Positions 5,393 to 45,418 of a DNA stretch of 64,000 nt are shown here, piece by piece. Each line of letters starts with the position of its first letter. Position 1 is the stretch's first letter. Position numbers and translations under genes: made by a program. The DNA comes from an uncultured Acidobacteriota bacterium (GTDB lineage: Bacteria > Acidobacteriota > Terriglobia > UBA7540). The stretch covers positions 388,269-452,268 of the forward strand of contig CAWGTQ010000016.1 of assembly GCA_963825395.1 (NCBI GenBank), read 5' to 3'. The notes below the pieces were generated by a model, which was not told the origin of the DNA, did no database searches, and saw only the letters and a program-made list of their open reading frames with translations.

Positions 5393-5416
5393 CTCAATCT
5401 GGCGTCACCCACCAGA

Positions 5417-6127: not shown

Positions 6128-6715
6128 ATGGATCGCCAAACAGCGTGGGAACTCCTTTGCGAGTACACGAAGAATGAGAATTTGCGGAAGCACGCTTTGG
6201 CCGTGGAAGCCTGCGTGTGCGCTTATGCCCGCAAGTTCGGCGAAGATCAGGAAAAGTGGAGAGTCGTCGGACTGATCCACGATTTCGATTACGAGATCTA
6301 TCCGAACGCTCCCGACCACCCGCTGAAGGGGAGCGAGATTCTCAAGGAAAAAGGGGTGTCGGAAGAGATACGCCGCGCTATTCTCGGCCACGCCGATTAC
6401 AGTGGAGTCGCGCGCGACACGCTGCTGGCCAAAGTGCTGTTTGCTTGTGACGAGGTGGCAGGCTTCATCACCGCCTGTTCATTGGTCCGGCCCGACCGGA
6501 TCGCCAGCCTGGAAGCGAAGTCGGTGAGAAAGAGAATGAAGGATAAAGCCTTCGCGCGCTCCGTGAGCCGCGAGGACATCACCAAGGGTGCGGAGGAACT
6601 AGGGGTCCCCTTGGATGAGCACATCACGTTCTGCATTGCCGCCATGCGCGAGATCGCTGATCAACTGGGCCTGGCGCCCGCAGGCGGCGCCCCCGTCGCG
6701 CCGGCCGCGTCGTAA
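6128..6715 (+). CDS. HD/HDIG domain phosphohydrolase
   Basis: The ATG at 6128 follows a GGGGGAG-like RBS. The HD motif is GLIHDFDY, and LGHADYSG lies downstream. Confidence 0.75.
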   Translation: MDRQTAWELLCEYTKNENLRKHALAVEACVCAYARKFGEDQEKWRVVGLIHDFDYEIYPNAPDHPLKGSEILKEKGVSEEIRRAILGHADYSGVARDTLLAKVLFACDEVAGFITACSLVRPDRIASLEAKSVRKRMKDKAFARSVSREDITKGAEELGVPLDEHITFCIAAMREIADQLGLAPAGGAPVAPAAS

Positions 6716-6730
6716 GGACGCGCATCCGTC

Positions 6731-7504
6731 TCAGGACGCAGGGGGAAGGCCGGAACCGAACCCACCATCCACAACCACAGACGAGCCGGTCATATAAGCC
6801 GCTTCGTCGCTGGCCAGAAACGCGGCCACGCGCGCCACTTCCTCCGGGCGGCCGATTCTCTTCAAGGCCTGAAGCTTGGCCGCTGTGGCGCGAGCTGCGA
6901 CCGGGTCAGGCTGCTCTTCGAAATACCCCCATGCCATACCGGCATCGATGTAACCCGGGCATATACAGTTGACGCGAATACCATCCTTCCCGTGGTCGAT
7001 CGCCATCGCCTTGGTCAGGGCAATGATCGCACCCTTCGTAGCGCAATAGCCCGCGCACATCGGCTCCACGAAAAATCCGTTCACCGAGGCCATGTTGATG
7101 ATGTTTCCGCGTGTCATGCGTAAGTGAGGCAGAAAAAATTTCGAACAGAGGAAGATGCCGCCCAGATTCACGGCCATCTGGTGGTTCCACTCTTCCACGG
7201 TCGTCTCTTCCAAAGTTTTGCTGACTTGTACGGCAGCGTTGTTGAACAGGACGTGTATATTGCCGAAAGCTTGCGCGGTTTCCCGCACCAGCCGCTGAAC
7301 GGAATCGGCGTCCGCCACGTCCATTTCTACCGCCCTTGCCACGCCGCCCGCGGCGGTAATTTCCCGCGCCGTTTCCTGCGCTCCCAAAAAATTGATATCC
7401 GCCACTACCACCCGCGCGCCTTCCTTGGCGAACTCCTGCGCTGAGGCCCGGCCAATTCCTGCGCCGGAACCGGTGATGACCGCAATGCGGTCCTTGAGCT
7501 TCAT
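6731..7504 (-). CDS. SDR family oxidoreductase
   Basis: It carries TGSGAGIGRA (the TGxxxGxG cofactor motif), NNAA and YCATKGA (YxxxK). Confidence 0.85.
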   Translation of the reverse strand: MKLKDRIAVITGSGAGIGRASAQEFAKEGARVVVADINFLGAQETAREITAAGGVARAVEMDVADADSVQRLVRETAQAFGNIHVLFNNAAVQVSKTLEETTVEEWNHQMAVNLGGIFLCSKFFLPHLRMTRGNIINMASVNGFFVEPMCAGYCATKGAIIALTKAMAIDHGKDGIRVNCICPGYIDAGMAWGYFEEQPDPVAARATAAKLQALKRIGRPEEVARVAAFLASDEAAYMTGSSVVVDGGFGSGLPPAS

Positions 7505-7553
7505 GCTTCCTCCGGCTTCCCGTTTGGCATCGCCCGAGCGATTGCCGGCAGGC

Positions 7554-8945
7554 TTACAATTTTACCTGCTGAAGATAGGTCGGCACCGAAACATCCCAGT
7601 GGAGTTGCTGGGCAATGCGCTGCCGCAGAGCCTCGCTGGCCTTGGGTTCACCGTGAACCAAAAGGGTTTTCCCTGGCGTCTTGGCGAACCGGCCAAGCCA
7701 AGCAAGGATTTCACCATAATCCGCATGGGCACTCAGGTTCTCGATGGTCTCAATGCGCGCCCGCACGTGCACTTCGTGGCCGTACATTTTCACGGCCTGG
7801 GCGCCGGATTGGATCGCCTGCCCGCGCGTTCCCGCCGCCTGGAATCCCACGAATAGTATGGTATTGCGATGGTCCGGCAGGCAGCGTTCCAGATGATGAA
7901 CCACGCGGCCGCCCGTCGCCATGCCGCTCGCGGAAATGATAATCGTTGGGTAGTGCGCGTCGTTGAGCTGCTTCGACGCCTCGATAGTCCTGTCAAAGTG
8001 CAGATTGGGTGGGGAGAACGGCTTGATCCCCTGCTCTTCCAGTGCATCCAATTCCAGGCTGTGGTCCTCTCGGTGCTTGTCGTAAAGATGGGTGACGTCG
8101 ATCGCCATGGGGCTGTCCAAGTGGATCGGCAACGAGTGCATCTTCTTATCTTCGATGAGTTCACGGAACAAGAAGAGCAGTTCTTGCGTGCGTCCCACGG
8201 CGAAGGAGGGAATTACTAACGTCCCGCCGCGGCGGGCCGTGTCCTCAACAATCGAAGTCAGGCGCGCGCCAATATCTTCCTTCGGGTGCAACCGGTCGCC
8301 GTAGGTGGATTCGAGCAGCATGTAATCGAATCCGTCTTCAGGCACGGCTGGTTCAGGAATAACCATTTGCGGGAAGCGGCCCAGGTCGCCGGAGAAGAGC
8401 AGCTTCTTGCTGGTCCCGTTTTCCCGGACCGTCACTTCGATCATGCGCGCGCCCAGGATGTGTCCCGCGAAAAAGCCGCGTATCGTGAAGTGCGGGGAAA
8501 TCTCGACCCGCTCCACGGCGTACACCGCATGAATGCGTTCGAGCGACTTTACCGCCTCCTCATAGTTGTAGAGGGGCAGGGCGGGGGCGTGTTTGCTGAA
8601 TCCCTTTTTGTTTGCGAAGTCCGCATCTTCTTCCTGTAGGTGTCCGGAATCCGGCAACACAATTTTGGCAAGATCCACCGTGGCCGAAGACGCCAGGATC
8701 TGGCCGTGAAAGCCGTCCTTCACCAAGCGTGGAATGTAGCCGATGTGGTCGAGGTGCGCGTGCGTCAGGACGATCCATTGGATGCTCGCGGGCGGCACGG
8801 GCAGCGGATTCCAGTTGCGTAGCCGCAGTTCCTTGTCCCCCTGGAAGAGTCCGCAGTCAACCATCAAGCGTTCGCCGCCGGCTTCCAGCAGATATTTCGA
8901 ACCGGTTACCGTGCCGGTCGCACCGAGAAAAGTGAGAGTGGCCAT
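7554..8945 (-). CDS. MBL-fold metallo-hydrolase with beta-CASP / RNA-specificity domain (CPSF73/RNase J-like)
   Basis: This is a 463-aa ORF with THAHLDHIG (HxHxDH), ESTYGDR, and a C-terminal SAHADY...LVHGE. Confidence 0.85.
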   Translation of the reverse strand: MATLTFLGATGTVTGSKYLLEAGGERLMVDCGLFQGDKELRLRNWNPLPVPPASIQWIVLTHAHLDHIGYIPRLVKDGFHGQILASSATVDLAKIVLPDSGHLQEEDADFANKKGFSKHAPALPLYNYEEAVKSLERIHAVYAVERVEISPHFTIRGFFAGHILGARMIEVTVRENGTSKKLLFSGDLGRFPQMVIPEPAVPEDGFDYMLLESTYGDRLHPKEDIGARLTSIVEDTARRGGTLVIPSFAVGRTQELLFLFRELIEDKKMHSLPIHLDSPMAIDVTHLYDKHREDHSLELDALEEQGIKPFSPPNLHFDRTIEASKQLNDAHYPTIIISASGMATGGRVVHHLERCLPDHRNTILFVGFQAAGTRGQAIQSGAQAVKMYGHEVHVRARIETIENLSAHADYGEILAWLGRFAKTPGKTLLVHGEPKASEALRQRIAQQLHWDVSVPTYLQQVKL

Positions 8946-8985
8946 TAATTGTCCTTTGCGTATTGCCTAGGAATGACGTTTGGTA

Positions 8986-10597
8986 TCAAATCACCACCGA
9001 CTCCTGATACTCGCCGAAGACCCGGCGGAGGGCATCGGAGATCTCGCCCACGGTGGCGTAAGCCTTGACGGCGTCGAGAATCGCCGGTAGCAAGTTGCGT
9101 TCGGTACGCGCGGTCTCTTCCACGGCTCGGAGGGTTGATTCCACGCGCGCGGCGTCGCGACGCGCCCGCAGTGCGGCCAGGCGCTCAACCTGGGTGCGTT
9201 CGATTTCGGGATCGATACGCAGAAGGGGCGGAGAGGCTGCGGGTCTCGTCCACATACTGGTTCACCCCCACCACCACACGCTCTTGCCGCTCGATGGCTC
9301 TCTGATATTCGTAAGCGGCCCGCTGGATCTCGCGCTGCACGTAACCCGATTCGATGGCGCGCACCATGCCTCCCATCGCATCGATCCTGCGCAAGTATTC
9401 CCGGGCCTGGGCCTCGATCTCACCGGTGAGTTTTTCGATAACGTAGGAGCCTGCCAGCGGATCGATAGTGTTAGCCACGCCGCTTTCCGCAGCCAGAATT
9501 TGTTGCGTACGCAAGGCCAGCAACGCGGAAGCTTCTGTGGGCAAGGCCAGAGCTTCGTCGCGAGAATTGGTGTGCAGAGATTGCGTCCCGCCCAGTACCG
9601 CCGCCAGCGCCTGGAGCGTGACGCGCACGATGTTTACGTCGGGCTGCTGCGCCGTGAGCGTGGAGCCGGCGGTTTGCGTGTGGAAGCGGAACATCCAGGA
9701 GCGCTGGTTCTGGGCTTGGAAGCGCTCATGCATGATACGCGCCCAGAGCCGCCGCGCGGCGCGGAACTTGGCGACTTCCTCCAGTAGATCGTTATGCGCA
9801 TTCAGAAAGAAGGAGAGGCGCGGCGCAAATTCATCCACCGCCAAGCCTCGCGCCAGCGCCGCTTCCACGTAAGCAATGGCATTGGCTAAGGTGAAAGCCA
9901 CTTCCTGCACAGCGGTCGAGCCTGCTTCACGAATGTGATAGCCGCTGATGGATATGGTGTTCCACCCGGGAGCGCGGTCGCGGCAGAAGGCAAAGATATC
10001 CGTCACGATGCGCAGCGCGGGAGCGAGCGGATAAATGTAAGTGCCCCGCGCAACGTATTCTTTCAGAATATCGTTCTGGACCGTTCCCGACAACCGACTG
10101 AGATCGGCGCCTTGCTTTTCGGCTACGGCGAAATAGAGCGACAGCAAAATCGCCGCCGTCGCGTTGATGGTCATTGACGCCGAGACCCGCTCGAGAGGAA
10201 TCCCCTGGAAGAGCATTTCCATGTCTTCGAGCGAGTCGATGGCCACGCCCACACGCCCCACTTCACCGTGCGCCAGGGGGTGGTCAGAATCAAGGCCAAT
10301 CTGCGTGGGAAGGTCGAACGCGACGGAGAGGCCCGTTTGCCCTTGCGATAGCAGATAACGGTAGCGTGCATTCGATTCGCGTGCCGTCCCGAAACCTGCG
10401 TATTGGCGCATCGTCCAGAGGCGGCTGCGGTAAAGGGCCGCGTGAATGCCACGCGTGAAGGGGTATTCACCCGGATAGCCTGCCTCACTCTCGTAGTCCC
10501 AGCCGGCAAGGTCCTCAGGCGCATAGAACCTCTTAAGCTTCAACCCCGAGCCCGTAACGAATTTGCTTTTAAGTTCCTTGTCGTGTTGTGCAGCCAT
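8986..10597 (-). pseudogene. methylmalonyl-CoA mutase family catalytic subunit carrying a +1 frameshift (or a homopolymer sequencing error)
   Basis: Track ORF 9185..10678 holds the MCM catalytic domain ([34 protein letters not shown]). The last ~85 aa ([18 protein letters not shown]...[16 protein letters not shown]) continue in ORF 8986..9255 in the +1 frame. The switch lies at the coding-strand run CCCC (plus 9225-9228). Confidence 0.8.
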
Positions 10598-10652
10598 AAA
10601 AGCGAACGGCCAAGCGCGCAGTGCGATCTCGCGCGCAACATGCACCGCCAAG

Positions 10653-11060
10653 TCAGTGCACGTTTCGCGCTTTTGCAAAGGAGTAAAGGCAAAGGATCGC
10701 CAGGAATACGGTGAATCCCCCGAACATTGTAAAGTGGACTAGGCCCAATTCCGGAGTTTTCCGGTAACCCTCCCACTCCGCAAAGGTTAGCGACGCCCCG
10801 GCAAGCGTCAAGACCATAAAGGCCAGCCCGATGAGCATGTGAAACAACCGCTTCGCGTTGAGAAACCAGTAATGGAACAGACGACCGAGTCGACTCAAAG
10901 CCTTCCTTTCCTGCCCTGTGCGGGCTCTTCCTATTCCCCGTACATTATCGTATGGACAAACCACGGTGCAGTCAAACACCGGCTCGGCTCCAGTGGCGGG
11001 TTCGGCGCGCACATACAAATTTGGGCCGGGCTGGAGATTTGAAATTCGCTTTGATTTCAC
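10653..11060 (-). CDS. hypothetical small membrane protein
   Basis: This is a 135-aa ORF with two predicted TM helices ([17 protein letters not shown] and [16 protein letters not shown]). I recognise no family. Confidence 0.4.
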
Positions 11061-11154
11061 GGGGTTAGGTGCCGCACCCGGCTTTTGCCTTGACGTCCTT
11101 CAACGGCAATCCTAGAATTGAATTTGCAAGCCACCTTTGCCTTCCAGGTGAGCC

Positions 11155-11454
11155 TTGGAGCTAGACGATAACTTCAAACGCCTAATTAAAGAATTAGGCG
11201 ACGCCATCAACGAGTCTCTCTCCGATTCCGACCGGATTGCCGAGGTCATGTCGCGCATCCGCAACGCCGGTTATGACCTCTTTCTCGTTCTGGAGGTCAC
11301 CATCGGCTTCAACAAGCGCGGCGAGGTGAACCTGGTGCATCGCCAGAAACTCAACGCCGATGTCCGGCCCGATCCCGAGTTCCGCCTGACCACGCAAGAC
11401 ACACAATTCCTTCGCGCCTTGAAAATTGTCGTGGATAAAGACCTTGACGCCTAG
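11155..11454 (+). CDS. hypothetical protein
   Basis: This is a 99-aa ORF with a non-ATG start and a plausible, non-repetitive composition. I recognise no family. Confidence 0.35.
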   Translation: MELDDNFKRLIKELGDAINESLSDSDRIAEVMSRIRNAGYDLFLVLEVTIGFNKRGEVNLVHRQKLNADVRPDPEFRLTTQDTQFLRALKIVVDKDLDA

Positions 11455-11730
11455 GTCAAGGTTACAGTGGTGTGGTGAGGTCGGCGGGTGACAGCACCAA
11501 CTATGCTAATCTAACGCCGCAGGGTAGAACGAAGCCCCCCAACTCCTGGATCGCCATCGCCCTCCACACGCAAATTATTTTCCGGCTGGTAGCGGAGGAA
11601 TTTTCCCTCGCGTTTTACTCCAAGTTACGGCCCCCAGAAAGTTCCCGCGCTGTTGGTGATTCGGCGTGAGAAGTCGCCTTCACGCCCGTTGGCAGCACCC
11701 GACGCCAGCAGCATCTGCAGTCCGTTCGAT

Positions 11731-12738
11731 CTACGGTCTTTCCCATTTGCCGGATTCCCCTGATCGCAAGACGGCATCGATCACGGACATATTCTTGATT
11801 GCATCCTCGACTGGAACCGCAACATCGCCTCCTTCGCGAATCGCCCTCGAGAACACGTCGCCTTGAATCGTATACTGGTCGCAGGTAGCGAACTCCTCCG
11901 TTCTCACGCCCCCTCCGAAGAGGTCAACGCCGTTATCAACGAAGATCCGGCAAGGCCTGTCGTTCGGGGCATTGAACGGGATCTCAACCTCGATACGTCC
12001 TTGCGTTCCGAAAAACTGCATCCGCTGATAGGGCACGAGTTGGGTGCTGCAGGTGAAGATGGACTGTCCCGACGGGAAATCGAGGATCGCGGAGGTCAGC
12101 CGGTCAATCTTCATCTCGGGATCGCGTTCGATCAGCCCCATCACCCGCAAGGGTTCTTCGCGAAAAACAAAACGCGAGGTCGTGATCGGGTAGCAACCGA
12201 TGTCCATTAAACCACCGCCACCCCACTCGGGGACATTGCGGATATTGGCGGGGTCACGGTTAAAGTAGCTGAAGAAGCCTATGATCGAGCGTAACGTGCC
12301 GATCTGGCCAGCCTCGATGATCTCCCGGGTGCGCAGCCACTGCGGGTGCGTGCGGACCATAAAAGCTTCACCGATCTTGACGCCGGTGCGGTCCCGCGCC
12401 GCCAGAAGTGTACGGGCCTCCTCGGCAGTCAGGCTCAGCGGTTTTTCGCATAGGACATGCTTGCCCGCTTCAATCGCCTTGAGGGTCCACGGGACATGAA
12501 GCTGATTTGGGAGCGGGTTGTAAACCGCCTCAATCTCTGGATCCCGCAAGAGCTCTTCATATGATCCATAGGCCTTATCGATGCCGAGCGCGCTTGCCGC
12601 GGCTTCGGCTTTGTGCCGGTCACGCGAGGCGATCGCTGATATCTTACTCCACTCTCCCTGCTGCATGGCCGGTATCACCTTCCGAACCGCGATCTGGGCA
12701 ACGCCCAGAACGCCCCACCGCACTTTGTCTCGCACCAC
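11731..12738 (-). CDS. Gfo/Idh/MocA family oxidoreductase
   Basis: It has the Rossmann N-terminus VRWGVLGVAQIA and the motif CEKPL. I chose the GTG start at 12738 because AAGGAG lies 5 nt upstream; the track start at 12792 is less likely. Confidence 0.8.
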   Translation of the reverse strand: MVRDKVRWGVLGVAQIAVRKVIPAMQQGEWSKISAIASRDRHKAEAAASALGIDKAYGSYEELLRDPEIEAVYNPLPNQLHVPWTLKAIEAGKHVLCEKPLSLTAEEARTLLAARDRTGVKIGEAFMVRTHPQWLRTREIIEAGQIGTLRSIIGFFSYFNRDPANIRNVPEWGGGGLMDIGCYPITTSRFVFREEPLRVMGLIERDPEMKIDRLTSAILDFPSGQSIFTCSTQLVPYQRMQFFGTQGRIEVEIPFNAPNDRPCRIFVDNGVDLFGGGVRTEEFATCDQYTIQGDVFSRAIREGGDVAVPVEDAIKNMSVIDAVLRSGESGKWERP

Positions 12739-12835
12739 GGTTTCTCCTTTCCAAGCACTGGATTCTATCGCGAAAGCGCCGCCACGATCCAATCATTCCT
12801 GGAATCTAAATCGTGACTCTGACATCCTGAGTCTT

Positions 12836-13096
12836 TCAGTATTCCGTCATGGTCCCGTCCTTTGCGTCCAGGTCGATGCGCATAATCCACTCGCAATTGA
12901 CGTAGTGGGATTGAAAGAACTTTTCCAGAGTGGGTTGGTCTGGGGCTTCAACTTCCGTGAGCATTCGCCCCCCAATCTGGCTGCCAAGACACCGCCGGAC
13001 TTTCACCTCTTTACCATTGATCAGCGTTCGCATTAACTCTCTTAAGGCCTGCTTTGTCAGGCAAGCCGTGGTGTGCGCGGCAAAATAGAGTGGCAT
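12836..13096 (-). CDS. small hypothetical protein
   Basis: This is an 86-aa ORF with a compact, non-repetitive sequence. The family is not securely recognised. Confidence 0.4.
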   Translation of the reverse strand: MPLYFAAHTTACLTKQALRELMRTLINGKEVKVRRCLGSQIGGRMLTEVEAPDQPTLEKFFQSHYVNCEWIMRIDLDAKDGTMTEY

Positions 13097-13143
13097 GGGT
13101 CCTCGCTGAGACAGGATTTAGGATCAAGGATTCAGTATAAGTC

Positions 13144-13216
13144 GTAGCGCCGAGCTTTAGCTCCGTACGTGCCCCCCCTTCGCCCGCTCAGGGCAAGCTC
13201 TAAAGGTCGGTGCTAC
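13144..13216. repeat. REP-B-like element, degenerate
   Basis: It reads gtagcgccgagctttagctccgtacgtgcc ... agctctaaaggtcggtgctac and is related to the copies at 20527, 30502, 31681 and 44167. Confidence 0.5.
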
Positions 13217-13243
13217 TTAGCCATTAATCCTGAATTCTAGATC

Positions 13244-14098
13244 CTACTTCAGTCCCAAATGCCGCGCGATCAGCGCGTCGCGCCAGTGGTCAGGCAGAGC
13301 GCGGCCGAGGCTGATTTCGAGCCCGGAGTGGGCGCCCACCACGTAGCGCGTGCGGGGGCGTCGGGCGGTCAGCGCGTGTACGACAGCCTTCACCACCACC
13401 TCGGTTGATGCTGCCTGGGCGGACTCCCGTTCGATGGTGTCGCGAACGACGCGCATGGCGGGCCCATACAACTGAAGGGCTTCGGCAGGGAGTTGCGCCC
13501 GGAGCGCCTCCTCGCTGGTCAGCGATTTTTTCAAGATGGGCGTCCGAATGAAACCCGGCTCCACAATCGAAACGAGAATCTTCCAGGGCCGAAGCTCCAT
13601 GCGCAACGCGTCTGTCAAAGCTTCCAGCGCGAACTTAGAAGCGGAATAGGCACCAGTAAACGGGCTGGAGATCAGGCCACTCACTGAGCCGATATTCACA
13701 ATGCGGCCCCGCGCCTTGCGCAGGCTGGCAAGCAAGATCTGGGTGACGGCGATTTGGCCGACCACGTTGACCTCCAGCTGGCGGCGGAGGGCATCGAGTG
13801 GCAGGAACTCCAGCATTCCGCCCACAACGATGCCGGCGTTGTTGATGAGTCCTGCCAGTCCAGCGCCGCCCAACGCCTCAATGACATTGCGGGCAGCCTG
13901 GCTAACTTCCGTCTCATCGGTGATGTCCAGGCGGACCGGAACCAGCCGCTCGGATGCGCGCCGCCGCAGGGACTCACCATCAGCAGCTTTGCGGATGCAC
14001 GCGAAGACGCGATATCCCAGCTTATCGATGTGCAACGCACACGCTTCCCCGATCCCCGTCGATGCTCCCGTAATGACCACAGCGCCCTTGTCTGCCAT
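13244..14098 (-). CDS. SDR family oxidoreductase
   Basis: The internal ATG at 14098 gives MADKGAVVITGASTGIGEA. NNAG and YSASKFA (YxxxK) are present. Confidence 0.85.
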   Translation of the reverse strand: MADKGAVVITGASTGIGEACALHIDKLGYRVFACIRKAADGESLRRRASERLVPVRLDITDETEVSQAARNVIEALGGAGLAGLINNAGIVVGGMLEFLPLDALRRQLEVNVVGQIAVTQILLASLRKARGRIVNIGSVSGLISSPFTGAYSASKFALEALTDALRMELRPWKILVSIVEPGFIRTPILKKSLTSEEALRAQLPAEALQLYGPAMRVVRDTIERESAQAASTEVVVKAVVHALTARRPRTRYVVGAHSGLEISLGRALPDHWRDALIARHLGLK

Positions 14099-14260
14099 CG
14101 GCCCTCCTCTTTGCGGAGGGCTATAATACCAGCGGACACGCGCCTTGCGCTTTGATGAATTTTTATTACCGATGAGGAAGGTAGCCCCTTCCCCACTCGC
14201 CTGAATCATCCGGGTTAAGCCCTCAAGAAATGAGAGAAAAAGTTGAGGGGAGCTTGCCTT

Positions 14261-14848
14261 TCACTCCAAGGCGGCAAGCAATAGAGAAGCCTTTCGCGCC
14301 AGGTTCAGAGCACGCGGAAGATCGCCGCTTGCCATTGCGTGCGTGGCCTGCGCAAAGAATGTGCGCGCATCTTCAAGCGTTTTCTGATCGTTGGTAGAGA
14401 GCCGTGCGCCATTGAAGCGAGCTAGGCGCTGGCGGACGTCCTGCTCGAGTTGGCGAAACTGGTTCTTGAGATCGTTTTCCTGGGCAGTGCTTTGTCGTGG
14501 TTCGAGGGCGGGAATTTCCGCGGGAGGTGTCTCAGGAGTTTCCTGCGTGGAGGTTTCATCGGGCTCGGGGGCCGTTGCGGTGCGCGCCGGGTTCCGTCGA
14601 CGGTGAGAGGCCGTGGGCTCTGGGGTTTGGGGTGGCGCAATCTCTTCCGGCTCAGGTTCAGGTGGGGGTGCAGGTTCCTCGATCACCAGAACTTGTGGTT
14701 CCGTGGCGGCTGGCGCCGCCGCCGGGGCTTGCGCCGGAGCGTGCGCCGGAACGTAAACAATAAGGCTTTTGGAGGCCTGGCGTTTGGGACAACCGCCAAA
14801 CCAGAGCAACAGAGCGCAAAGCGATGAAATAGACCCACGCCGCAGCAT
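14261..14848 (-). CDS. Pro/Glu-rich lipoprotein, hypothetical
   Basis: The signal peptide ends in a lipobox-like LWFGGC. A long PAPE-rich linker and a helical C-terminal domain follow. Confidence 0.55.
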   Translation of the reverse strand: MLRRGSISSLCALLLWFGGCPKRQASKSLIVYVPAHAPAQAPAAAPAATEPQVLVIEEPAPPPEPEPEEIAPPQTPEPTASHRRRNPARTATAPEPDETSTQETPETPPAEIPALEPRQSTAQENDLKNQFRQLEQDVRQRLARFNGARLSTNDQKTLEDARTFFAQATHAMASGDLPRALNLARKASLLLAALE

Positions 14849-15135
14849 CTTGAGAATTCTATCATTACCGACGCTCAGGGCGAAACCCGCCTGCCGGCGC
14901 AGGAGACGGGCCTCCCCTGGTCGATGGCTCGTGATTTTTGGTAAGGGTTAATAGAAAAAAGCAAACCTTTCCCTCGATTCAGATTATTGACGTCCGATGT
15001 GGAAGCCCCGATAATTTGCCCGTTAGGGGCGTTTGATTGCTCCTCCGCGGCCAAATCTAGGTTAGCCGCACCCCGCGTCGGGTCTTAGGTCAGCCCAGTC
15101 TCAGGGACATCGCTATCCAATCGGAGAGTGGTCAT

Positions 15136-18492
<3,357 letters not shown>

Positions 18493-36687: not shown

Positions 36688-39219
36688 TCAAGTTCTTAGC
36701 TCAACGATCGTCGCTCCGCCACCGCCTTCTTGGGGCGGGGCCAAGTAGAATTTCTCAACATGGGGGTGATGAGAAAACATCTCGTGCAGGGTTCTTCGCA
36801 GAATGCCCTTGCCGTGGCCGTGAATAATGCGCACCCGCGAGCGTCCACCCAGAAAAGCCTGGTCGAGATATTTATCCACGCGCTCGCGGGCCTCCTCCGC
36901 CGTATTTCCGATGACATTGAACTCCTCCGGGACTTCTTCGCTGCGCGATGTGGCCACCGTCGGATCCGGAGCGCCTCCCGGCATCAGAGGCCTGACCTCT
37001 TCCTTGCCGACGCGCATTTTCAATCGTCCCACGGACACTTCCACTAGCCCGCCCTCAAGCAGGGCCGTTACCGTTCCGGGTGTGGAAACACCCATCAATT
37101 GCACACGGTCACCGACCGCCATCGGCCGTACAACAGTGGGTTCTTGGGGCGCCGGAGCGGCCTCACCCAGCGCTTCCAGTACCCGAGTGTTCCATTCCTC
37201 CCGCGCCTCCCGCACCAAGCCGGTGGCTTTCCGCTCGCCCCGCGTCACCACCTTGACGGGCGCTGCTTGTCTGCGCAACTCCTCCAGTGATTGCTCCCAC
37301 GTCTTCGCGTACTGCCGCAAGGTGTCGTCCAAGCGGGAGTCAAGCTCTCGCAGCTTGGCGCGGCGGTCCTGCTGGAATTGCCGCTCCAATTGTTCTGCGT
37401 GTTTTTCCAGCTCCTGCTTTTCGATTTCCAGCGCCTTCAGATTGTGTTCCATTTCGGTGCGTTGCTGGTGCAGACCCGCCACCAGCGCGGCGGCCTCGGC
37501 GTCGGCCGGATGGAGCAGGGACCGTGCCTTCTGCACGATGCCAGGTTCCAAGCCCAATCGCGCGGCGATATCCAGCGCGCTCGATTTTCCCGGCAAGCCG
37601 ACGAGCAGGCGATAGGTGGGTTCCAGCGTCGCTTCATCGAACTCCATCGCCGCGTTCACGGCTTCCGCGGTTTCGGCGGCGTAGGCTTTCAGGCGCGAAT
37701 GGTGGGTGGTCACCATGGTCATAGCGCCGCGCTGGCGAAAGTGTTCGAGAATGGCCACGGCCAGCGCCGCGCCTTCGTTGGGCTCCGTGCTGGCGCCAAT
37801 CTCATCGAGCAGCACCAGATCGTTTGGCCCTGCCACTTCCGCCATGGCCTCGATGTTGGTCACGTGGGCGGAAAAGGTGCTGAGGCTCGCCGCAATGGAT
37901 TGCTGGTCGCCGATGTCCGCCAGCACGCGCCCGAACAGTGGCAGCTTGACTTCGTTGGCGGGCACGGGTATTCCCGCCTGCGCCATCAGTGCCACGATGC
38001 CCAGCGCCTTCAGCGCGACGGTCTTGCCGCCGGCGTTCGGTCCGCTGATGATCATCAGGGTTTTTGGCGCTTTCAGTTCCAGGTCAAGGTGGATAACCCG
38101 TGAATGCCCAGTGCTGAGGGCTAATAATAGGAGTGGGTGGCGAAACCCGTTCAGACAAATTGCCCGCTCCGGGCGAATCTCCGGAATGCAGCAGTCAAAT
38201 TGTTTGCTGAATTCGCCCTTGGCGAAGGCCCAGTCGATTTCGCCCAAAATGTCCGCTGCGCGCCTCAAGTCTTCGCGACGTTCTTGCAGTTTGCGCGTGA
38301 ACTCCCCCAGGATGCGCTGGACTTCCGCGAACTCGCGGTCTTGCAATTCCACCAATTCATTATTGAGAGCCAGCGTTTCCAGGGGTTCGATATAAACCGT
38401 GGCGCCGGAGGAACTGGACCCGTGCACCACGCCCTGCACGCGCCGTTTTTCCTCCACGCGGACGGGGATGACGAAGCGGTCATTGCGGATGGTCACCACG
38501 GCGTCCTGAAGCACGGTATCCTGGGAATAGCGCCGCAGCATCCGCTCCAGGCTCGACTGGATTTCAAGCTTGGCGCGCTCGATAGCCCGGCGAATCCGTC
38601 CCAACTCTTGACTCGCGGAAGAGTCCACGGTGCCATCGGGATTGATCTTGCCCGCCAGCTCCGTCACCAGGCTGCGGAAATCCGGCAGTGCGCGCGCCAG
38701 TTCCGCGAGGCGCGGCGTGGCTGACGGTGCTGCAGAGCCTGCCCGGAGCGGAGCGAAGGGGGCGAAAGGCGTTCGGCCTCCTTCCCCCGGGTGCGTCGCT
38801 GCGGGGCCGAGCGGCGCGCGGCCCCCTGTGCCCTCGTGTTGGGCGGCGCGCGGTGCGTCGCCATGCGCGAACGTGCGGTACATATCGAGGCCAGCCCGCG
38901 CCACTTCCACCAACGCCATGATCTCCGAGGCGGCGAGCGCCAGCCCTTCCACCCGCAATTTGTCCAGCAACGGGCCGGGGTCGCACAGTCCCGCCAGGCT
39001 GGGGCGAGCGCCCTCGCGTAAATACTCGCGTGCCTCGCCTGCCAATTCCAAATCGCGCCGAATCTTTTCCAGATGCGTGTGCGGTTCAACTCGCTCCAGC
39101 CGCGGCTCGCTGATGGGGCCGGAAAGATAACGGTGCAGCAGCTCAATAACGGCAGGGAACTCCAGCACGTCGCGGGAGAAGGGATCAATCGTCCTGTGCG
39201 TCAAGTCCGAGTCAGCCAT
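36688..39219 (-). CDS. mutS2: endonuclease MutS2 (with C-terminal Smr domain)
   Basis: This 843-aa ORF has the Walker A motif ISGPNAGGKT, DEIGASTEP, and the C-terminal Smr segment VRIIHGHGKGILR. Confidence 0.9.
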   Translation of the reverse strand: MADSDLTHRTIDPFSRDVLEFPAVIELLHRYLSGPISEPRLERVEPHTHLEKIRRDLELAGEAREYLREGARPSLAGLCDPGPLLDKLRVEGLALAASEIMALVEVARAGLDMYRTFAHGDAPRAAQHEGTGGRAPLGPAATHPGEGGRTPFAPFAPLRAGSAAPSATPRLAELARALPDFRSLVTELAGKINPDGTVDSSASQELGRIRRAIERAKLEIQSSLERMLRRYSQDTVLQDAVVTIRNDRFVIPVRVEEKRRVQGVVHGSSSSGATVYIEPLETLALNNELVELQDREFAEVQRILGEFTRKLQERREDLRRAADILGEIDWAFAKGEFSKQFDCCIPEIRPERAICLNGFRHPLLLLALSTGHSRVIHLDLELKAPKTLMIISGPNAGGKTVALKALGIVALMAQAGIPVPANEVKLPLFGRVLADIGDQQSIAASLSTFSAHVTNIEAMAEVAGPNDLVLLDEIGASTEPNEGAALAVAILEHFRQRGAMTMVTTHHSRLKAYAAETAEAVNAAMEFDEATLEPTYRLLVGLPGKSSALDIAARLGLEPGIVQKARSLLHPADAEAAALVAGLHQQRTEMEHNLKALEIEKQELEKHAEQLERQFQQDRRAKLRELDSRLDDTLRQYAKTWEQSLEELRRQAAPVKVVTRGERKATGLVREAREEWNTRVLEALGEAAPAPQEPTVVRPMAVGDRVQLMGVSTPGTVTALLEGGLVEVSVGRLKMRVGKEEVRPLMPGGAPDPTVATSRSEEVPEEFNVIGNTAEEARERVDKYLDQAFLGGRSRVRIIHGHGKGILRRTLHEMFSHHPHVEKFYLAPPQEGGGGATIVELRT

Positions 39220-39376: not shown

Positions 39377-39536
39377 AAAATTCGGTCGCATGTTGGGGTG
39401 ATGGTTGTTGCACCCTTGGTGAGTCGTGGGTAGGATGGGCTTTGTGATCTACCTCGACCACAACGCGACCACGCCCATACTGCCGGAGGTACTGGATGCG
39501 ATGATGCCGTACCTCACGACGGAATGGGGCAATCCG

Positions 39537-39584
39537 TAGGGCCGAACAGCGTTCGGCCATGGACCAGCGTTGCTGGTCCCTACA
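39537..39584. repeat. REP-C doublet inserted in the desulfurase gene
   Basis: It reads gtagggccgaacagcgttcggccatggaccagcgttgctggtccctac. Confidence 0.75.
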
Positions 39585-39784
39585 TTGTCTCCACGGCCCG
39601 CGAACAGGTGGCGGAGCTGATTGGAGCGCACCCACTGGATGTGATTTTCACTTCATGCGCGACGGAGAGCAACCATGCTGCCATCGCGGCGGCGCTCCGG
39701 GCCAACCCCACGAAACGCCACATTGTGACATCCCAAGTAGAACATTCGTCCGTGCTGAATTACTGCATGGCGCTGGAACGGGGC

Positions 39785-39870
39785 GGGTTATGTAGCGGCG
39801 GGTTTACCCCGCCATTGTCTGTTGCGCCCATGGCGCCAAATGGCGGGGTAAACCCGCCACTACATAACCC
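39785..39870. repeat. 86-nt palindromic insertion (GGGTTTACCCCGCCATT arms)
   Basis: It reads gggttatgtagcggcgggtttaccccgccatt...aatggcggggtaaacccgccactacataaccc. A related half-site lies at about 1787-1812. Confidence 0.7.
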
Positions 39871-40061
39871 GGGCTACCGCGTCACCTGCCTGCCGGTTGA
39901 CCGCGAGGGCTTGCCGCTCTTTTTCTGTTTTAGCTGACCACTGATAGCTGAGAGCTGACTGCTGCCGTTCTGACGGGCCACAAGTTTCATGTGCCTAAAG
40001 GCATTGGCGCGCTATACGTCCGGCGCAAATCGCCATTCTCACCCTTGGTCTACGGCGGGCA

Positions 40062-40298
40062 TTAGGATACCGCCAACCGCAGGTCCGCGGTGACGGGCAA
40101 TTCAAAGAGGTCGCTCCGCTGCAAGCGCGTCGAGAAGAACATCACCTCCAAGTTCTCTACTTCACGGGTGGTGGGATTCAGGCGCGCCACAACATCGTCG
40201 CCCAATTCCTCCGATTCCTGGGCAGGATACGGCGGGCACTTGTCAATATGCAGGATGTCGGCTTCCCGGTCGTACTTAAAGGTTAACTTCGCGTCCAT
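40062..40298 (-). CDS. DUF2283-family small protein (putative antitoxin)
   Basis: This 78-aa ORF (MDAKLTFKYDREADILHIDK...ENLEV) shows the typical DUF2283 pattern. Confidence 0.65.
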   Translation of the reverse strand: MDAKLTFKYDREADILHIDKCPPYPAQESEELGDDVVARLNPTTREVENLEVMFFSTRLQRSDLFELPVTADLRLAVS

Positions 40299-41231: not shown

Positions 41232-42149
41232 CTATTTATCCCCCCATGGTCCAGGGGGCACCCATTTTTCGCGAAAGTTCTTTCCCGCACTTAAAGCGGT
41301 CAACAACGGTCCAAGAAAAGTGGCGATGGCGACGACCACCTCTGCGAGCTCCGGCGGAGCGTCGAGCCGGCTTTTTCGGATAAATCCCCGCCACTGGCTT
41401 TTTTTCGGGGGGTCATCCGCGAACCTGGTTGTCAGGCCGATGGGTTCGGGAACAATTTTCGTTTCCCGATGGGAAAATGTTTTAGCGACGGCATTGCCGA
41501 GGGTTTGCCCATCGAAGTCGAACTGCCGGGACAGCGTCCAGATGTCAAAGTAGTCTTTCATTCTGCTATTGAGGATGCCGCGGGTAACCAGCGACTCGAG
41601 TTTCTCGGCCACGATGCTCTCTTTGCTGTAGCCGCGCAGTCGCGGTGCTTCAAATTCGAGAAGGGTTGGGTATTCGATCGGCTGGGGAGCGGGAACGATG
41701 ACGTCCCCGAATCCGATATCCAGATGAAGAGTCACTCGGGCTGTACCCAAGTTGGCCCGGAACCGGATGCGAACGCCTTCGTAGTTGGCGTCCTCAGCAA
41801 TTCTTACGCCCTTGACCGTGGCCGGGTTGAACACGAGACCGTCGGGCGCAACCGGCTGGGTGCAAATCTGCCTGGTGATGGCCACGACGCTTTCGAGTTG
41901 ATTGGCCGTTCTGCCCAAGAGGTCAATGTCCTTCGTCGGGCGGTAAGACTCCAGTTTCCATACGGTGAACATGAGCGCGCCCTTCAGAATGAATCGGGCG
42001 GCATGAGGCGACTTAGAAAGACGATAGAGGAAGCGCTCCATCGCAAAATATTGGAGGAGTTCATTGAAAGGTCGATGAGTCTGCCGAGCCCTGTTCAAAA
42101 GCAATTGGTGCACCGAGGCCGGAAGGTTGATTGGGGCTCGCTTGGTCAC
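41232..42149 (-). CDS. nucleotidyltransferase AbiEii/AbiGii toxin family protein
   Basis: This 305-aa ORF carries FILKGALMF...TKDIDLLG, the DUF1814/AbiEii signature. It overlaps the AbiEi stop by 4 nt. Confidence 0.85.
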   Translation of the reverse strand: MTKRAPINLPASVHQLLLNRARQTHRPFNELLQYFAMERFLYRLSKSPHAARFILKGALMFTVWKLESYRPTKDIDLLGRTANQLESVVAITRQICTQPVAPDGLVFNPATVKGVRIAEDANYEGVRIRFRANLGTARVTLHLDIGFGDVIVPAPQPIEYPTLLEFEAPRLRGYSKESIVAEKLESLVTRGILNSRMKDYFDIWTLSRQFDFDGQTLGNAVAKTFSHRETKIVPEPIGLTTRFADDPPKKSQWRGFIRKSRLDAPPELAEVVVAIATFLGPLLTALSAGKNFREKWVPPGPWGDK

Positions 42150-42766
42150 ACCAGCGCCTCCAGGTAGGGGCGCATCACCTTGGCAACACGGCAGACTTCC
42201 GTGGCTTTAATCAGTGCGTCGATGTTCCTCTTTCTTCTCCCCAGATAGAGTTTGAGCGCATCGCGAGCGGTGTCGAGGCCAATTTTGTTCCGGTATTTGA
42301 AGCAGTCCGCAATGGTTTTTTCGGGACTGTAAATCCGCACCTGCGTCCCGTCGAGTTGGTGCGCCTCCATACCGAATTCGAAAACTCTGTGGGAGAACCA
42401 GAATATCCGGAGAGGAGGATAATCGAGGCGAGGGGGTTCCGCCCCGCGCGGCAGGGCAAGATACACTTCGTGCGGAATCTCGGTCGTCAGTTCGTGGAAG
42501 GCCAGCGCGGAGATAAGGCAGATGACGCCGCTCGGGACCCTCATTCCCACCATGACCAGATCGGGGCTCCCCAGCGGCGGCAGATCAGAGAGGCGGTAAA
42601 GGCCTCGGCCAAGGCACGCGAGGGTCCCAGAATCGCGCATCCTGTAAAGCGTTTCGGGATGAATGCCGAGGCGCAGTGCCTCTTTCGTTCTGAGCACACC
42701 TCCGTGTTGCCGGAAGATGTTCCGCGCGCGGGAGGGGCGGTCTCGGTTTGGTCGTTGTGACGACAT
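42146..42766 (-). CDS. type IV TA system AbiEi family antitoxin / transcriptional regulator
   Basis: This 206-aa ORF has an N-terminal wHTH (GGVLRTKEALRLGIHPETLYRMRDSGTLACLGRGLYRL) and the C-terminal AbiEi_4-like domain. Confidence 0.85.
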   Translation of the reverse strand: MSSQRPNRDRPSRARNIFRQHGGVLRTKEALRLGIHPETLYRMRDSGTLACLGRGLYRLSDLPPLGSPDLVMVGMRVPSGVICLISALAFHELTTEIPHEVYLALPRGAEPPRLDYPPLRIFWFSHRVFEFGMEAHQLDGTQVRIYSPEKTIADCFKYRNKIGLDTARDALKLYLGRRKRNIDALIKATEVCRVAKVMRPYLEALV

Positions 42767-43112: not shown

Positions 43113-43358
43113 CTACCCCTTTAAGAGACGCGCGTGCCAATCGAAAACGTTTTCACACAGGACTGGTCGTATCGGGTCAAAGCCAGCGGGCAGGTCGGGC
43201 CGTAACGAAAACCGGTTGGTCAGTGCCCAGTCGAGTTTTCCGATGTCATTGTCAGGATAGATGTGGGCGTTGAGATTTTGCCCATGAAAGCAATGCAAGA
43301 GCAAATGTCCTCTGGGGTTGGATACTATGAAAGCTCGCTGTACGATGTTGTGCGTCAA
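43113..43358 (-). CDS. hypothetical small protein
   Basis: This is an 81-aa ORF. The open frame extends upstream without an ATG (GYCGNPTTLTHNIV...). No family is recognised. Confidence 0.3.
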   Translation of the reverse strand: MTHNIVQRAFIVSNPRGHLLLHCFHGQNLNAHIYPDNDIGKLDWALTNRFSLRPDLPAGFDPIRPVLCENVFDWHARLLKG

Positions 43359-43711
43359 GGTCGTGGGGTTCCCGCAGTACCCCTAGTCCTTGTCGGTATT
43401 GCACCGTAGTTTTAGCCTCAGCCGACTCGCACAGCGTCTGGCCCACCAGGCACCCTTCAGTCACCACAAAAGCAAAACCCCGCCGGAGGCCTTGAGGCTG
43501 ATCCGACGGGGAGGAAGTCTCAAGATGAGCATGAATCCCAGCGCCTCGCTTTATCAAGGGCTAATCCAGCCAAGAAAGGTGCGGCCAGCAGTCCCTCGCG
43601 GGCCTTGTCGCGATCAACCACGGTGCACGTCCAGCAGCCGAAGCGGCTGTGGCCACAACTGGGGGTGCTGGTGTCAATCTGGATGGGGCACTCGCCGTTC
43701 GAGGCGCTGGC

Positions 43712-43825
43712 GTAGGGACACGCCATGGCATGGCCATACGGAGGCGATTGCCTCGGGGGTTGGGATTCTGTGGACACGCCATGGCGTGTCCGTACGGGGG
43801 CGATTGCCTCGGCGGTGGGGGTTCT
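43712..43825. repeat. tandem pair of REP-G units inside the dndC remnant
   Basis: There are two units of ~57 nt, each containing the palindrome ggacacgccatggc(a/g)tg(g/t)cc followed by tacgg(a/g)ggcgattgcctcgg. Confidence 0.7.
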
Positions 43826-43984
43826 GGAGGAGGTAGGCCCAAACGTCCCACGTCGTCAGGAATTCAATGGGATTTGATACCCAAACGCGGGGCAAGTCGG
43901 GATGCCGCCGCAAGCCGTTGCGCGTTTGGTGGGCCGCCATGGTTTGGGCGCGGGTGGAGCTCTCGGCGCGGCGCGCTCCGGCTT

Positions 43985-44032
43985 GTAGCGGCGGTCTCCG
44001 ACCGCCGGCGGGCGATCGGAGATCGCCGCTAC
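43985..44032. repeat. REP-H palindrome inside the dndC remnant
   Basis: It reads gtagcggcggtctccgaccgccggcgggcgatcggagatcgccgctac. Confidence 0.7.
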
Positions 44033-44166
44033 AGCGAATGCCCACGCGCTGCTTTACCAGGGCGTTTACCGGGTCAATCTTCATCCGCTGCGTACACCAG
44101 CGGAAGGTGCGGTTGGGGGGAGGGTAGCCGCGTCCTATAATGTTGACCCAAAAGGGTCTTTTTATC

Positions 44167-44216
44167 GTAGCGCCGGCCTTTAGGCCGGCACGTGCCGACC
44201 TAAAGGTCGGCGCTAC
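44167..44216. repeat. REP-B copy inside the dndC remnant
   Basis: It reads gtagcgccggcctttaggccggcacgtgccgacctaaaggtcggcgctac. Confidence 0.75.
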
Positions 44217-44398
44217 ATTGTTGGCGTCACATTGTTGGCGTCAATGTTCAGGCCGTGCTGCTCGGAGCACTTGCGCATGCGGTCCAGCGTGCCTTCAATC
44301 ATTTCGGCAATGGCGGGAATCTCCACGCGCGCGTCCGTGCAGAGGACCGAGATGGGCTTCTTGCGCTGCTCGGCGGGGATGGACAGAACGGCGTCGTT

Positions 44399-44447
44399 GT
44401 AGGGCCGAAGAGCCTTCGGCCCAAGGCCGAGCGCTGCTCGGCCCTAC
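44399..44447. repeat. REP-C doublet inside the dndC remnant
   Basis: It reads gtagggccgaagagccttcggcccaaggccgagcgctgctcggccctac. Confidence 0.75.
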
Positions 44448-44734
44448 ACGGCCGCTAAGGCCCACCAGCCACGGCCGCTGGTCGTCCAAATAGAGTTGTC
44501 GGAGTGAACCCTTGATGTCCCGAAACATTCGCCGTCCCGTCGCGGGGAGTATACACCCCACCCTCTTATTTTCAAGTAATGTCTTTAAGATAGCATCTGT
44601 GGCAGCCGGCGGAAAAGCGGGTGGCCCGGACCTTTTATGGAGGTCTGCGGTTCGTCCCCCTTTCGACACCGAAAAGCCACCCACCCGGAGGACAGGCGCT
44701 ACGCTTGGTTAAGGGGATTTCGCCGGATTCCGTC

Positions 44735-44779
44735 CGAAAAACGCCCTTCCTGGAAAGTGGCCAAGCTGAGCCACGGGTA
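44735..44779 (+). repeat. 45-nt conserved hairpin element, copy 1
   Basis: cgaaaaacgcccttcctggaaagtggccaagctgagccacgggta differs from 57369-57413 at a single position. It contains the hairpin GTGGC-caagctga-GCCAC. Confidence 0.6.
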
Positions 44780-44863
44780 ACGCCGACATCTCAAGCCTGC
44801 CCTTAGCGGAGCGAGCCGAAGAACCTCGACCCGGATATCGATGAGACCTATTATCCAGAATTC

Positions 44864-45418
44864 CTATTGTGAGGCTTGAGTATGCTTCCGGTGCCGAGCG
44901 TGCGTTCGGGCCTTGCTCTTTTTAGGCTGGACCGCCGGTTTCTCTGGCGCCGGTACCGGTAGCGGAAGGTCAGAGTTGAACATTGTGCGCGCAATCTTCC
45001 ACAACCCGCCGGCCTGTTTGCGCCAAATGGTCAGGTACTTGCCGTGGTCTTCGATTGGCGCCGCCCCGGCAGGGGTCACGGTCATGGAATAGGTTCCGCG
45101 ATCGTAGGCCAAGTCTCCTCGGCCTTCGATTTCCAAGCTCTGCTCCTGGAAGTTGGAAAACGCCGGGAAAGCCTCATCCCAGGCCTGGATGGCGGCCTTG
45201 CCCTGGACCGCCGCCTGATGGGGCGGCAACTCGATGGCGTCGTCCTCATAGAGGACCAAATCCCCGTTCCAGTCTTTGGCGTTCATTAGCTTCATATCGT
45301 TCTCGTCAGCTTGGCGAATCGCCGTTCGGTCAGACTCGGACAGTCCGCCGCGCTGGCATCCGACACTGAATCCCAGGCAGACTACCATGCCTATCATCAA
45401 AACGAGTCGCTTCTCCAT
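44864..45418 (-). CDS. DUF4440/SnoaL-like (NTF2 fold) lipoprotein
   Basis: The internal ATG at 45418 gives MEKRLVLMIGMVVCLGFSVGC (lipobox). The pattern GKYLTIWRKQAGGLWKIARTMFNSD is typical of DUF4440. Confidence 0.65.
   Translation of the reverse strand: MEKRLVLMIGMVVCLGFSVGCQRGGLSESDRTAIRQADENDMKLMNAKDWNGDLVLYEDDAIELPPHQAAVQGKAAIQAWDEAFPAFSNFQEQSLEIEGRGDLAYDRGTYSMTVTPAGAAPIEDHGKYLTIWRKQAGGLWKIARTMFNSDLPLPVPAPEKPAVQPKKSKARTHARHRKHTQASQ

Follow-up and report, generated by a model that had tools for sequence, protein, structure and literature searches.

The window, that is, the whole stretch of 64,000 nucleotides analyzed here (C16:388269-452268), belongs to a Terriglobia (Acidobacteriota) assembly of 7.2 Mb in 86 contigs, with 58% G+C and ~91% completeness; close relatives are MAGs named Terriglobia or Acidobacteriota that come from soil and peat. 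Three-frame translation of the region 43200-44900 revealed five collinear fragments of a dndC gene on the minus strand, running from position 44528 down to 43583, and a repeat search placed GTAG-headed multi-copy palindromes of four families (REP-B, REP-C, REP-H, and REP-G) at the junctions between them (Table 1). DndC, the protein described by the model TIGR03183, belongs to the DNA phosphorothioation systems of the type represented by dndA-E of Streptomyces lividans and dptB-E of Salmonella. The predicted promoter of the gene is kept, according to the alignment, in the intact orthologues and in all relic copies.

Table 1. Features of the dndC relic and its surroundings (positions within the window).
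Feature	Position	Strand	Description
Broken dndA-like (NifS/IscS-type) cysteine desulfurase	39482..40083	+	pieces 39482-39913 and 39970-40083; internal stop
Foreign 3' tail	43461..43582	-	promoter-like TTGATA-18-CATGCT (43557-43528), G+C-rich hairpin (43511-43478), T-run
dndC fragment 5	43714-43583	-	codons ~216-260, Cys-rich motif; YASASNGECPIQIDTSTPSCGHSRFGCWTCTVVDRDKA, YASASNGECPIQIDTSTPSCGHSRFGCWTCTVVDRDKAREGLLA
56-nt tandem duplication with REP-G	43715..43826	-	55/56-nt direct repeats 43716-43770 and 43772-43826; private to the window copy
dndC fragment 4	~43980-43827	-	ARRAESSTRAQTMAAHQTRNGLRRHPDLPRVWVSNPIEFLTTWDVWAYLLQNP; ARRAESSTRAQTM...NPIEFLTTWDVWAYLLQNP
REP-H REPIN	43984..44033	-	palindrome 44032-43985; TGTAGCGGCG...CGCCGCTACA; 23-nt arms, 91%
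dndC fragment 3	~44160-44041	-	FWVNIIGRGYPPPNRTFRWCTQRMKIDPVNALVKQRVG
REP-B REPIN	44167..44216	-	GTAGCGCC..GGCGCTAC; two inverted 25-nt arms, 92% complementary
14-nt tandem duplication	44215..44242	-	GACGCCAACAATGT x2; private to the window copy; breaks the frame
dndC fragment 2	44395-44243 (to ~44229 with DANN)	-	codons ~39-89; DAVLSIPAEQRKKPISVLCTDARVEIPAIAEMIEGTLDRMRKCSEQHGLNI; ...ISVLCTDARVEIP...NIDANN
REP-C REPIN with filler	44396..44450	-	palindrome 44447-44399 (repeat search 44391-44455); GTAGGGCC...GGCCCTAC
dndC fragment 1	44528-44451	-	codons 1-26, MFRDIKGSLRQLYLDDQRPWLVGLSG; ends within the PP-loop motif SGGKDS
Predicted dndC promoter	44548..44575	-	TTGAAA-16 nt-TATACT; 10/12 consensus matches; 0.2 sites expected in shuffles
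Upstream segment X	44572..44699	-	94% identical to C13:15388-15515; duplicated together with the relic

The repeat-free concatenate of the fragments (242 amino acids) matched TIGR03183 with 219 bits (E 1e-64) in one stretch covering positions 4-259 of 447, and the PADLOC DndC models with 220-227 bits. The generic PAPS-reductase model PF01507 gave only 32 bits and the APS reductase model 17 bits, in agreement with the assignment of the fragments to DndC, and not to generic PAPS reductases, in the first-pass annotation. The concatenate scores below the curated TIGR03183 cut-off of 290.4 bits because only these profile positions are left, and the intact congeneric orthologues reach 376-387 bits on the same model, above the cut-off. 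The gene in the window is derived from a member of the DndC family and is itself no intact member. Similar to DndC of the Dnd systems, it carries the PP-loop region, FRWCT, ARRAES, and the Cys-rich CP..C..RFGCWTC motif in the same order; it differs in that it has only codons 1-260, a destroyed PP-loop, and a repeatedly broken frame.

With the intact 429-aa DndC of the congeneric genome G018 as the query, tblastn detected only codons 1-260 of ~430 in the window; the homology stops at 43583, and the C-terminal ~170 codons (~261-430) are absent. Both this search and the DNA alignment showed the fragments to be collinear with the intact congeneric gene. Two outcomes had been named beforehand as able to overturn the DndC reading, a failure to score as DndC and a lack of collinearity, and neither was observed. 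All the peptides quoted at first were recovered on the minus strand in the DndC order, and all the pieces listed then are present, the fourth of them being longer than had been recognized. The PP-loop motif SGGKDS is cut after SG, as had been described: the window copy reads LVGLSG and then passes into REP-C. FSGGKDST reads through in the intact orthologues and in a second relic of the same genome (on contig C13, see below). The codons for DANN at the end of fragment 2 lie inside the 14-nt duplication (44242-44215). The Cys-rich Fe-S motif ECPIQIDTSTPSCGHSRFGCWTC is present in the window, out of frame with the upstream fragments, and the reading frame of the window gene is broken at least four times.

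REP-B, REP-C, and REP-H are REPIN doublets of the form GTAG...CTAC, each composed of two inverted hairpin units with arms of 23-31 nt, and their palindromes were located where the first-pass annotation had placed them. The z-scores of single-strand folding against shuffled sequences were -4.7 for REP-C, -8.1 for REP-B, and -6.5 for REP-H. REP-G consists of one hairpin only; its head is GTAG in the C13 copy and degenerate (GTAC/GTAT) in the window. What had been described as a tandem pair of REP-G is indeed a direct repeat in the region 43712-43825, but it is a 56-nt duplication in which each unit consists of ~28 nt of dndC-derived sequence and one REP-G hairpin with the core GGACACGCCATGGCGTGTCC. 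The second copy of the 14-nt duplication overlaps the GT of the REP-B head.

DNA alignment with the intact genes indicated that none of the four repeats is a simple insertion, as had been assumed at first; each of them replaces 12-36 nt of dndC. In the REP-C event, 55 nt were gained and 36 nt (encoding GKDSTMLASLVF) were lost, with a net change of +19. The REP-B event, with its filler, brought ~63 nt and removed 18 nt (LLKPLM), giving a net +45 that is in frame in the C13 copy; the REP-H event, also with filler, brought 56 nt and removed 23 nt (HWGEAILHL), with an in-frame net of +33. The REP-G event added ~26-29 nt at the cost of ~12-15 nt, and its net +14 is frame-breaking. Programmed -1 frameshifting or bypass at REP-G was considered and rejected: the site has no slippery heptamer, and the GTAG head is a stop in the shifted frame. 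The replacement character of the inserts, the truncation of the 3' end, the 14-nt duplication, and the existence of a second copy had all been absent from the first-pass annotation.

The profiles of DndD and DndB found no match in the 7.2-Mb assembly, and tblastn with the partners of this DndC subfamily (DndD, HerA/FtsK-like ATPase, HNH, and DGQHR proteins) found nothing there either, which extends to the whole assembly the lack of dndB and dndD noted earlier for the flanks. The desulfurase matches of the genome comprise housekeeping genes and the broken dndA-like gene, located 3.5 kb from the dndC relic. No partner dnd gene survives in the assembly, an absence that is not absolute in view of the ~91% completeness, the 86 contigs, and the uninformative DndE profile; therefore, no phosphorothioation is expected.

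The dndA-like relic is 68-82% identical to the desulfurase located beside the intact dndC in G018, and it is syntenic with the desulfurase adjoining intact dndC in G018, in the congeneric genome G002, and at other loci. On both sides, the window is syntenic with the islands of G018 and G002. This dnd-type island is intact in the two congeners, and the initial view of the locus as a relic of a Dnd-type system holds. The DndC subfamily concerned (~430 aa) occurs across many phyla with 70-90% identity. Among 80 loci of the subfamily, dndC is accompanied by genes for DndD in 56 (186 bits on PADLOC DndD), a HerA/FtsK-like ATPase in 54, an HNH protein in 25, a DGQHR (DndB/DpdB-like) protein in 22, and a cysteine desulfurase in 19. 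The intact orthologues elsewhere resemble known Dnd systems in adjoining DndD, a DGQHR/DndB-like gene, and a cysteine desulfurase; they differ in that dndC is usually followed by DndD and the HerA/FtsK-like ATPase and in that no DndE was recognized, and the genome of the relic differs in the lack of detected partner genes. DndC matches were found in 16 of 61 related genomes, only five of the 16 exceeding the family cut-off, and many of the 61 genomes examined contained several dndC fragments.

Segment X, upstream of the promoter, contains a terminator-like hairpin (44698-44678) that probably belongs to the upstream gene. A tRNA-derived attachment site was rejected for this segment because the tRNA/tmRNA and Rfam scans of the 39-47 kb part of the window returned nothing relevant. 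At the other end, the deletion of the last ~170 codons has fused dndC to the promoter and leader of an unrelated NYN-domain gene; in other copies the tail leads into this gene, which is missing from the window copy. The tail accompanies dndC relics in 7 of 29 congeners and is joined to dndC at codon ~20, ~31, ~150, or ~260, depending on the genome. It is missing from every intact locus and therefore is foreign, not the native end of the dnd operon. A transposon end was also rejected, since the junction shifts by ~20 nt between copies and thus no clean terminus exists. The variable junctions fit a progressive deletion of the pseudogene between its own promoter and that of the downstream gene.

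A profile search of the genome revealed a second relic at C13:4328-5368, which has in common with the window copy the promoter, REP-B, REP-H, one REP-G, the truncation, and the tail. It lacks REP-C, keeps SGGKDSTMLASLVF intact, and its reading frame runs on across REP-B and REP-H without a stop for 292 codons; its tail leads into the NYN-domain gene. A 10-kb Mu-like element with TG...CA ends is inserted just upstream of its promoter. The lesions of this relic and of the copies in other genomes are compared in Table 2.

Table 2. Lesions in the copies of dndC compared (+, present; -, absent).
Copy	REP-C	REP-B	REP-H	REP-G	3' end
Window (C16)	+	+	+	+ (duplicated)	codon 260 + tail
C13, same genome	-	+	+	+	codon 260 + tail
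G007 copy a	-	region replaced	+	+	codon 260 + tail
G007 copy b	site missing with 5' part	site missing with 5' part	site missing with 5' part	+	codon 260 + tail
G004:C24	+ (same junction)	-	-	match ends at codon ~157	not seen
G004:C10	not seen	+	beyond truncation	beyond truncation	codon ~150 + tail
G015:C6	-	+	-	-	full length
Intact dndC (G018 etc.)	-	-	-	-	full length, no tail

All four possible combinations of the presence and absence of REP-C and REP-B exist among the copies compared. Where a lesion is shared, the junctions and the replaced nucleotides are the same; REP-B and REP-H show no difference in their filler bases, and REP-C shows a slight one (CGT/AAC in the window and AAT/AAAC in G004). 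These data do not support, as it was worded, the earlier picture of one dead gene in which REPs landed again and again. The C13 copy has REP-B, REP-H, REP-G, and the truncation in common with the window copy; REP-H, REP-G, and the truncation occur in the G007 relics as well; REP-B is found in the full-length G015 copy, and REP-C stands at the same junction in a G004 relic that has neither REP-B nor REP-H. Therefore, most of the hits occurred outside the window copy.

The differences between the window and C13 copies comprise 23 synonymous and 12 non-synonymous substitutions, with a dN/dS of 0.14, and are distributed over codon positions 3:1:2 as 23:8:4. They are clustered (for example, seven fall in codons 127-134), and the 3' part of the C13 copy resembles the intact G018 allele more than it does the window copy. 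The bias toward third positions continues downstream of the shared frameshift, and the promoter region diverges by ~6%, the same as the rest. Such a low dN/dS between copies that share frame-breaking lesions is unexpected under plain neutral decay. Because the third-position bias persists past the shared frameshift, the pattern reads as homologous exchange that recurred among dndC alleles, both dead and living, and not as selection on the relic, as far as can be judged from the alignments; a mutation bias that depends on GC3 could account for some of the excess at third positions. The clustered, third-position-biased substitutions suggest that lesions and sequence patches were shuffled among dndC alleles, and recombination among these alleles appears to be the best explanation for the combination of lesions in the window.

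Based on these results, we consider it highly probable that the window locus is a non-functional remnant of a horizontally mobile dnd island, the relic and intact alleles of which swapped segments by recombination. Simple decay in situ, with one dead dndC hit four times and the shared lesions representing independent site-specific insertions, is quite improbable. REPs are abundant in the genome, with several families present, and different congeners carry three different inserts in the PP-loop region, a possible sign of hot spots; however, REP-C has the same junction, the same replaced nucleotides, and nearly the same filler in the window and in G004, and the junctions and fillers are likewise the same for REP-H in G000 and G007 and for REP-B in G000, G015, and G004:C10. 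Identical junctions fit one event each, later passed on. The coexistence of all four REP-C/REP-B combinations and the clustered, third-position-biased substitutions also argue against such decay.

A remaining function of the relic or of its C13 sister, whether that of a shortened PP-loop ATPase or that of a promoter or transcribed RNA module retained ahead of the NYN defence gene, is very unlikely. The PP-loop of the window copy is destroyed and its frame broken at least four times, and neither the window copy nor the C13 copy has the Fe-S Cys motif in frame. The dN/dS of 0.14 between the copies could be taken as a sign of function, but the third-position bias persists beyond the reach of protein-level selection; similarly, the promoter is conserved, but its region has diverged to the same ~6% extent as the rest. 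The C13 frame, open for 292 codons with SGGKDS intact, and the minimal relics of G027, G019, and G004, which consist of the dndC promoter and 20-30 codons before the tail, would also be compatible with some function, whereas the NYN gene is absent from the window copy. An origin of the fragments from a non-Dnd PAPS-reductase-like gene (e.g., BREX BrxP, SspD, or a phage DndC-like methyltransferase partner) seems extremely improbable: the weaker PADLOC matches that might point to it ("MTase_II" PDLC03333, 155 bits; BrxP, 25 bits; SspD, 26 bits) are far exceeded by those of the DndC models (219-227 bits), and the intact orthologues surpass the TIGR03183 cut-off. Although in G018 and G002 the gene after the intact dndC encodes an HNH protein instead of DndD, DndD adjoins dndC in most loci of the subfamily (56 of 80), with DGQHR (DndB-like) and cysteine desulfurase genes recurring nearby.

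Under the preferred reading, that of a remnant shaped by recombination, REP-B (+45 nt) and REP-H (+33 nt) would have entered first. Because both are in frame, they may have entered a still-living gene, the chance of two in-frame events out of two being ~1/9; in this genome, in-frame REPINs belonging to these families are tolerated within the open PolB and type ISP frames discussed below. The frame-breaking REP-G and the 3' deletion would then have killed dndC. Subsequently, the 1.24-kb unit of segment X, relic, and tail would have come to stand at C16, at C13, and in congeners. The relic and intact dndC alleles would have exchanged segments by homologous recombination or gene conversion, which would have spread identical lesions in different combinations and imported synonymous-biased patches. 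Finally, the window copy would have ended with all four REP lesions and the two duplications of 14 and 56 nt.

The assembly contains 49 full doublets of REP-B, 26 of REP-H, and 2 of REP-C; with up to three mismatches allowed, half units number 100 for REP-B, 68 for REP-H, and 31 for REP-C, and the REP-G core occurs 28 times. REP-C and REP-G are small families. A profile search found 18 Y1-transposase matches in the genome. One of them, a RAYT-like gene at C16:357541-357801 (PF01797, 31.7 bits), is flanked by REP-B units at 357281-357306 and 357941-357968, variants that were revealed by a flank-copy-number scan. In a search that allowed up to four mismatches, nine Y1-transposase genes had no unit of REP-B, REP-C, REP-H, or REP-G in the 700 bp on either side, and no cognate RAYT for REP-C, REP-H, or REP-G was found among the 18 matches.

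REPIN doublets also occur in long open frames (6 of 49 for REP-B and 7 of 26 for REP-H). The in-frame cases include one family-B DNA polymerase (PolB) and two type ISP restriction-modification enzymes, all matching their families; in the type ISP enzymes, ~70 clustered residues of REP-coded sequence lie within the PF18135 match (324 bits). The MutS2 gene in the window has an in-frame insert of 40-60 residues that is polymorphic in the genus: it is missing in about half of the congeners, and all the frames are open.

GTAG REPs inside genes, above all those for replication and repair, and Rickettsia palindromic elements in frame within ORFs have already been described (PMC3733652, PMC10969869). 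The GTAG palindromes of Di Nocera et al. (2013; PMC3733652), often dimers encoding 16-30 residues inside reading frames, are similar to the REPINs in PolB, in the type ISP enzyme, and in the dndC frame of C13. The present case differs from that account in its host, an Acidobacteriota MAG, in the piling up of several families in one gene, and in the breaking of the frame by some of them. A loss of 12-36 nt of target per insert is not mentioned in the accessible parts of that report or in their treatment of the Rickettsia elements. The inverted REPs forming a hairpin doublet of ~50 nt, present in tens of copies, and the Y1-transposase gene flanked by REP-B units correspond to the REPIN-RAYT system (Bertels and Rainey, 2011; PMC3116915). 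REPINs have been described as extragenic and mostly inherited vertically (PMC3116915). In contrast, the REP copies in dndC are not extragenic, lying within a gene or pseudogene, and identical REPIN lesions are found here inside a horizontally mobile gene, common to several species and shuffled.

In all four of the four events, about 26-63 nt were gained and 12-36 nt lost. If REPIN integration were coupled to the loss of target sequence and the lesions were then transferred, REPINs could serve as "off switches" that are both inherited and transferable and that silence a costly modification gene in horizontal circulation; alternatively, the relic, consisting of a promoter and hairpins, could have been co-opted as a transcribed regulatory module before the NYN defence gene. 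We regard this extension, in either form, as improbable.

Overall, the finding is real and was correctly identified, and its object is for the most part an ordinary one: a modification gene that was acquired horizontally, is decaying, and has been invaded by REPs. Taken alone, the locus carries little weight, as another dead gene of defence or modification. What gives it value is the natural record it provides, in which a small set of REPIN lesions can be traced through paralogues and species, and empty and filled sites with exact junctions are now at hand for four REP families. We know of no study of REPIN biology in the phylum Acidobacteriota. Three points deserve some interest: all four REP events are replacements, identical lesions are common to copies and species in discordant combinations, and in-frame REPINs are frequent in those open frames of this genome whose products match known families. 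For the biology of Dnd systems, our analysis shows that a DndC subfamily of ~430 aa circulates across phyla and has been repeatedly lost in this genus of Terriglobia.

The dndC relic of the window is accompanied in the same genome by a second dndC relic, in which the PP-loop is undamaged and an open frame of 292 codons runs continuously across both REP-B and REP-H. Downstream of this copy comes an NYN-domain gene of 208 aa (PADLOC HEC-09, E 8e-11). Inserted immediately upstream of the second relic's -35 box is a Mu-like transposable element with 5'-TG...CA-3' ends, flanked on either side by a duplicated TAAAGAC; according to our reading of its ORFs, the element would encode a putative 574-aa transposase, a 314-aa AAA+ MuB-like protein and an S24-type repressor.

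The foreign segment joined to the 3' end of the window's relic is conserved in 7 of 29 congeners, where it is located immediately before an NYN-domain gene and, in every case, is adjoined by a dndC remnant. It resembles a leader or attenuator. Within the window, the interval that separates the broken desulfurase from the dndC relic holds two overlapping genes, which have the look of a putative AbiEii/AbiEi toxin-antitoxin pair.

Features and their coordinates (C, contigs of the source organism's own assembly, G000; L, extracted loci of relatives)
Feature	Location	Strand	Remarks
In-frame REP doublets (REP-B, REP-C, REP-H) within long ORFs	C20:143966-144074; C51:178489-178589; C67:25427-25477; C47:90783-90832		
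Y1-transposase (PF01797) gene with its flanking REP-B units	C16:357281-357968		REP-B units at both sides; ~31 kb left of window
Two overlapping genes, 305 aa and 206 aa	window 41232-42766	minus	read from sequence
Second dndC relic	C13:4328-5368	minus	
MutS2 in-frame insert, 40-60 residues	window ~38716-38868	minus	mutS2, 36688-39219
Promoter-like TTGACA-18-TATGCT, then hairpin and T-run	window 43461-43582; L110-L118		
Mu-like transposable element, ~10 kb	C13:~5369-15387		ORFs read from sequence

The long ORFs that hold the in-frame REP doublets are those of a family-B DNA polymerase, of a protein read from its sequence as a putative TPR protein, and of two type ISP restriction-modification enzymes; the peptides that the doublets encode recur (e.g., VAPTFRSARADLKVSAT). 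The Y1-transposase gene is likely the RAYT (REP-associated Y1 transposase) of the REP-B family. In the congener G018, the dndA-like desulfurase adjoining an intact dndC (L017, G018:C19, 2867-4252) carries an in-frame REP-H-like stretch, CSVDLRSTFGGRRPPLQ, which is absent from the broken desulfurase copy of the window.

The in-frame insert of MutS2 is present in about 10 congeners and missing in about 14, with the empty site reading ...FAKHPT/PRLSELAR... (the slash marks the insertion point); the frames are open in all of them (800-880 aa), with or without the insert.

Among the congeners G017, G015, G004 and G027 (L025, L021, L026 and L028, respectively), the FSGGKDS codons of the dndC PP-loop are broken by at least three different inserts, and these codons may represent an insertion hot spot. 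The DndC subfamily of ~430 aa retains 70-90% identity across Acidobacteriota, Nitrospirota, Verrucomicrobiota, Binatia, Planctomycetota and proteobacterial MAGs (L029-L108), a level of similarity between phyla which implies that its horizontal transfer has been both recent and frequent.
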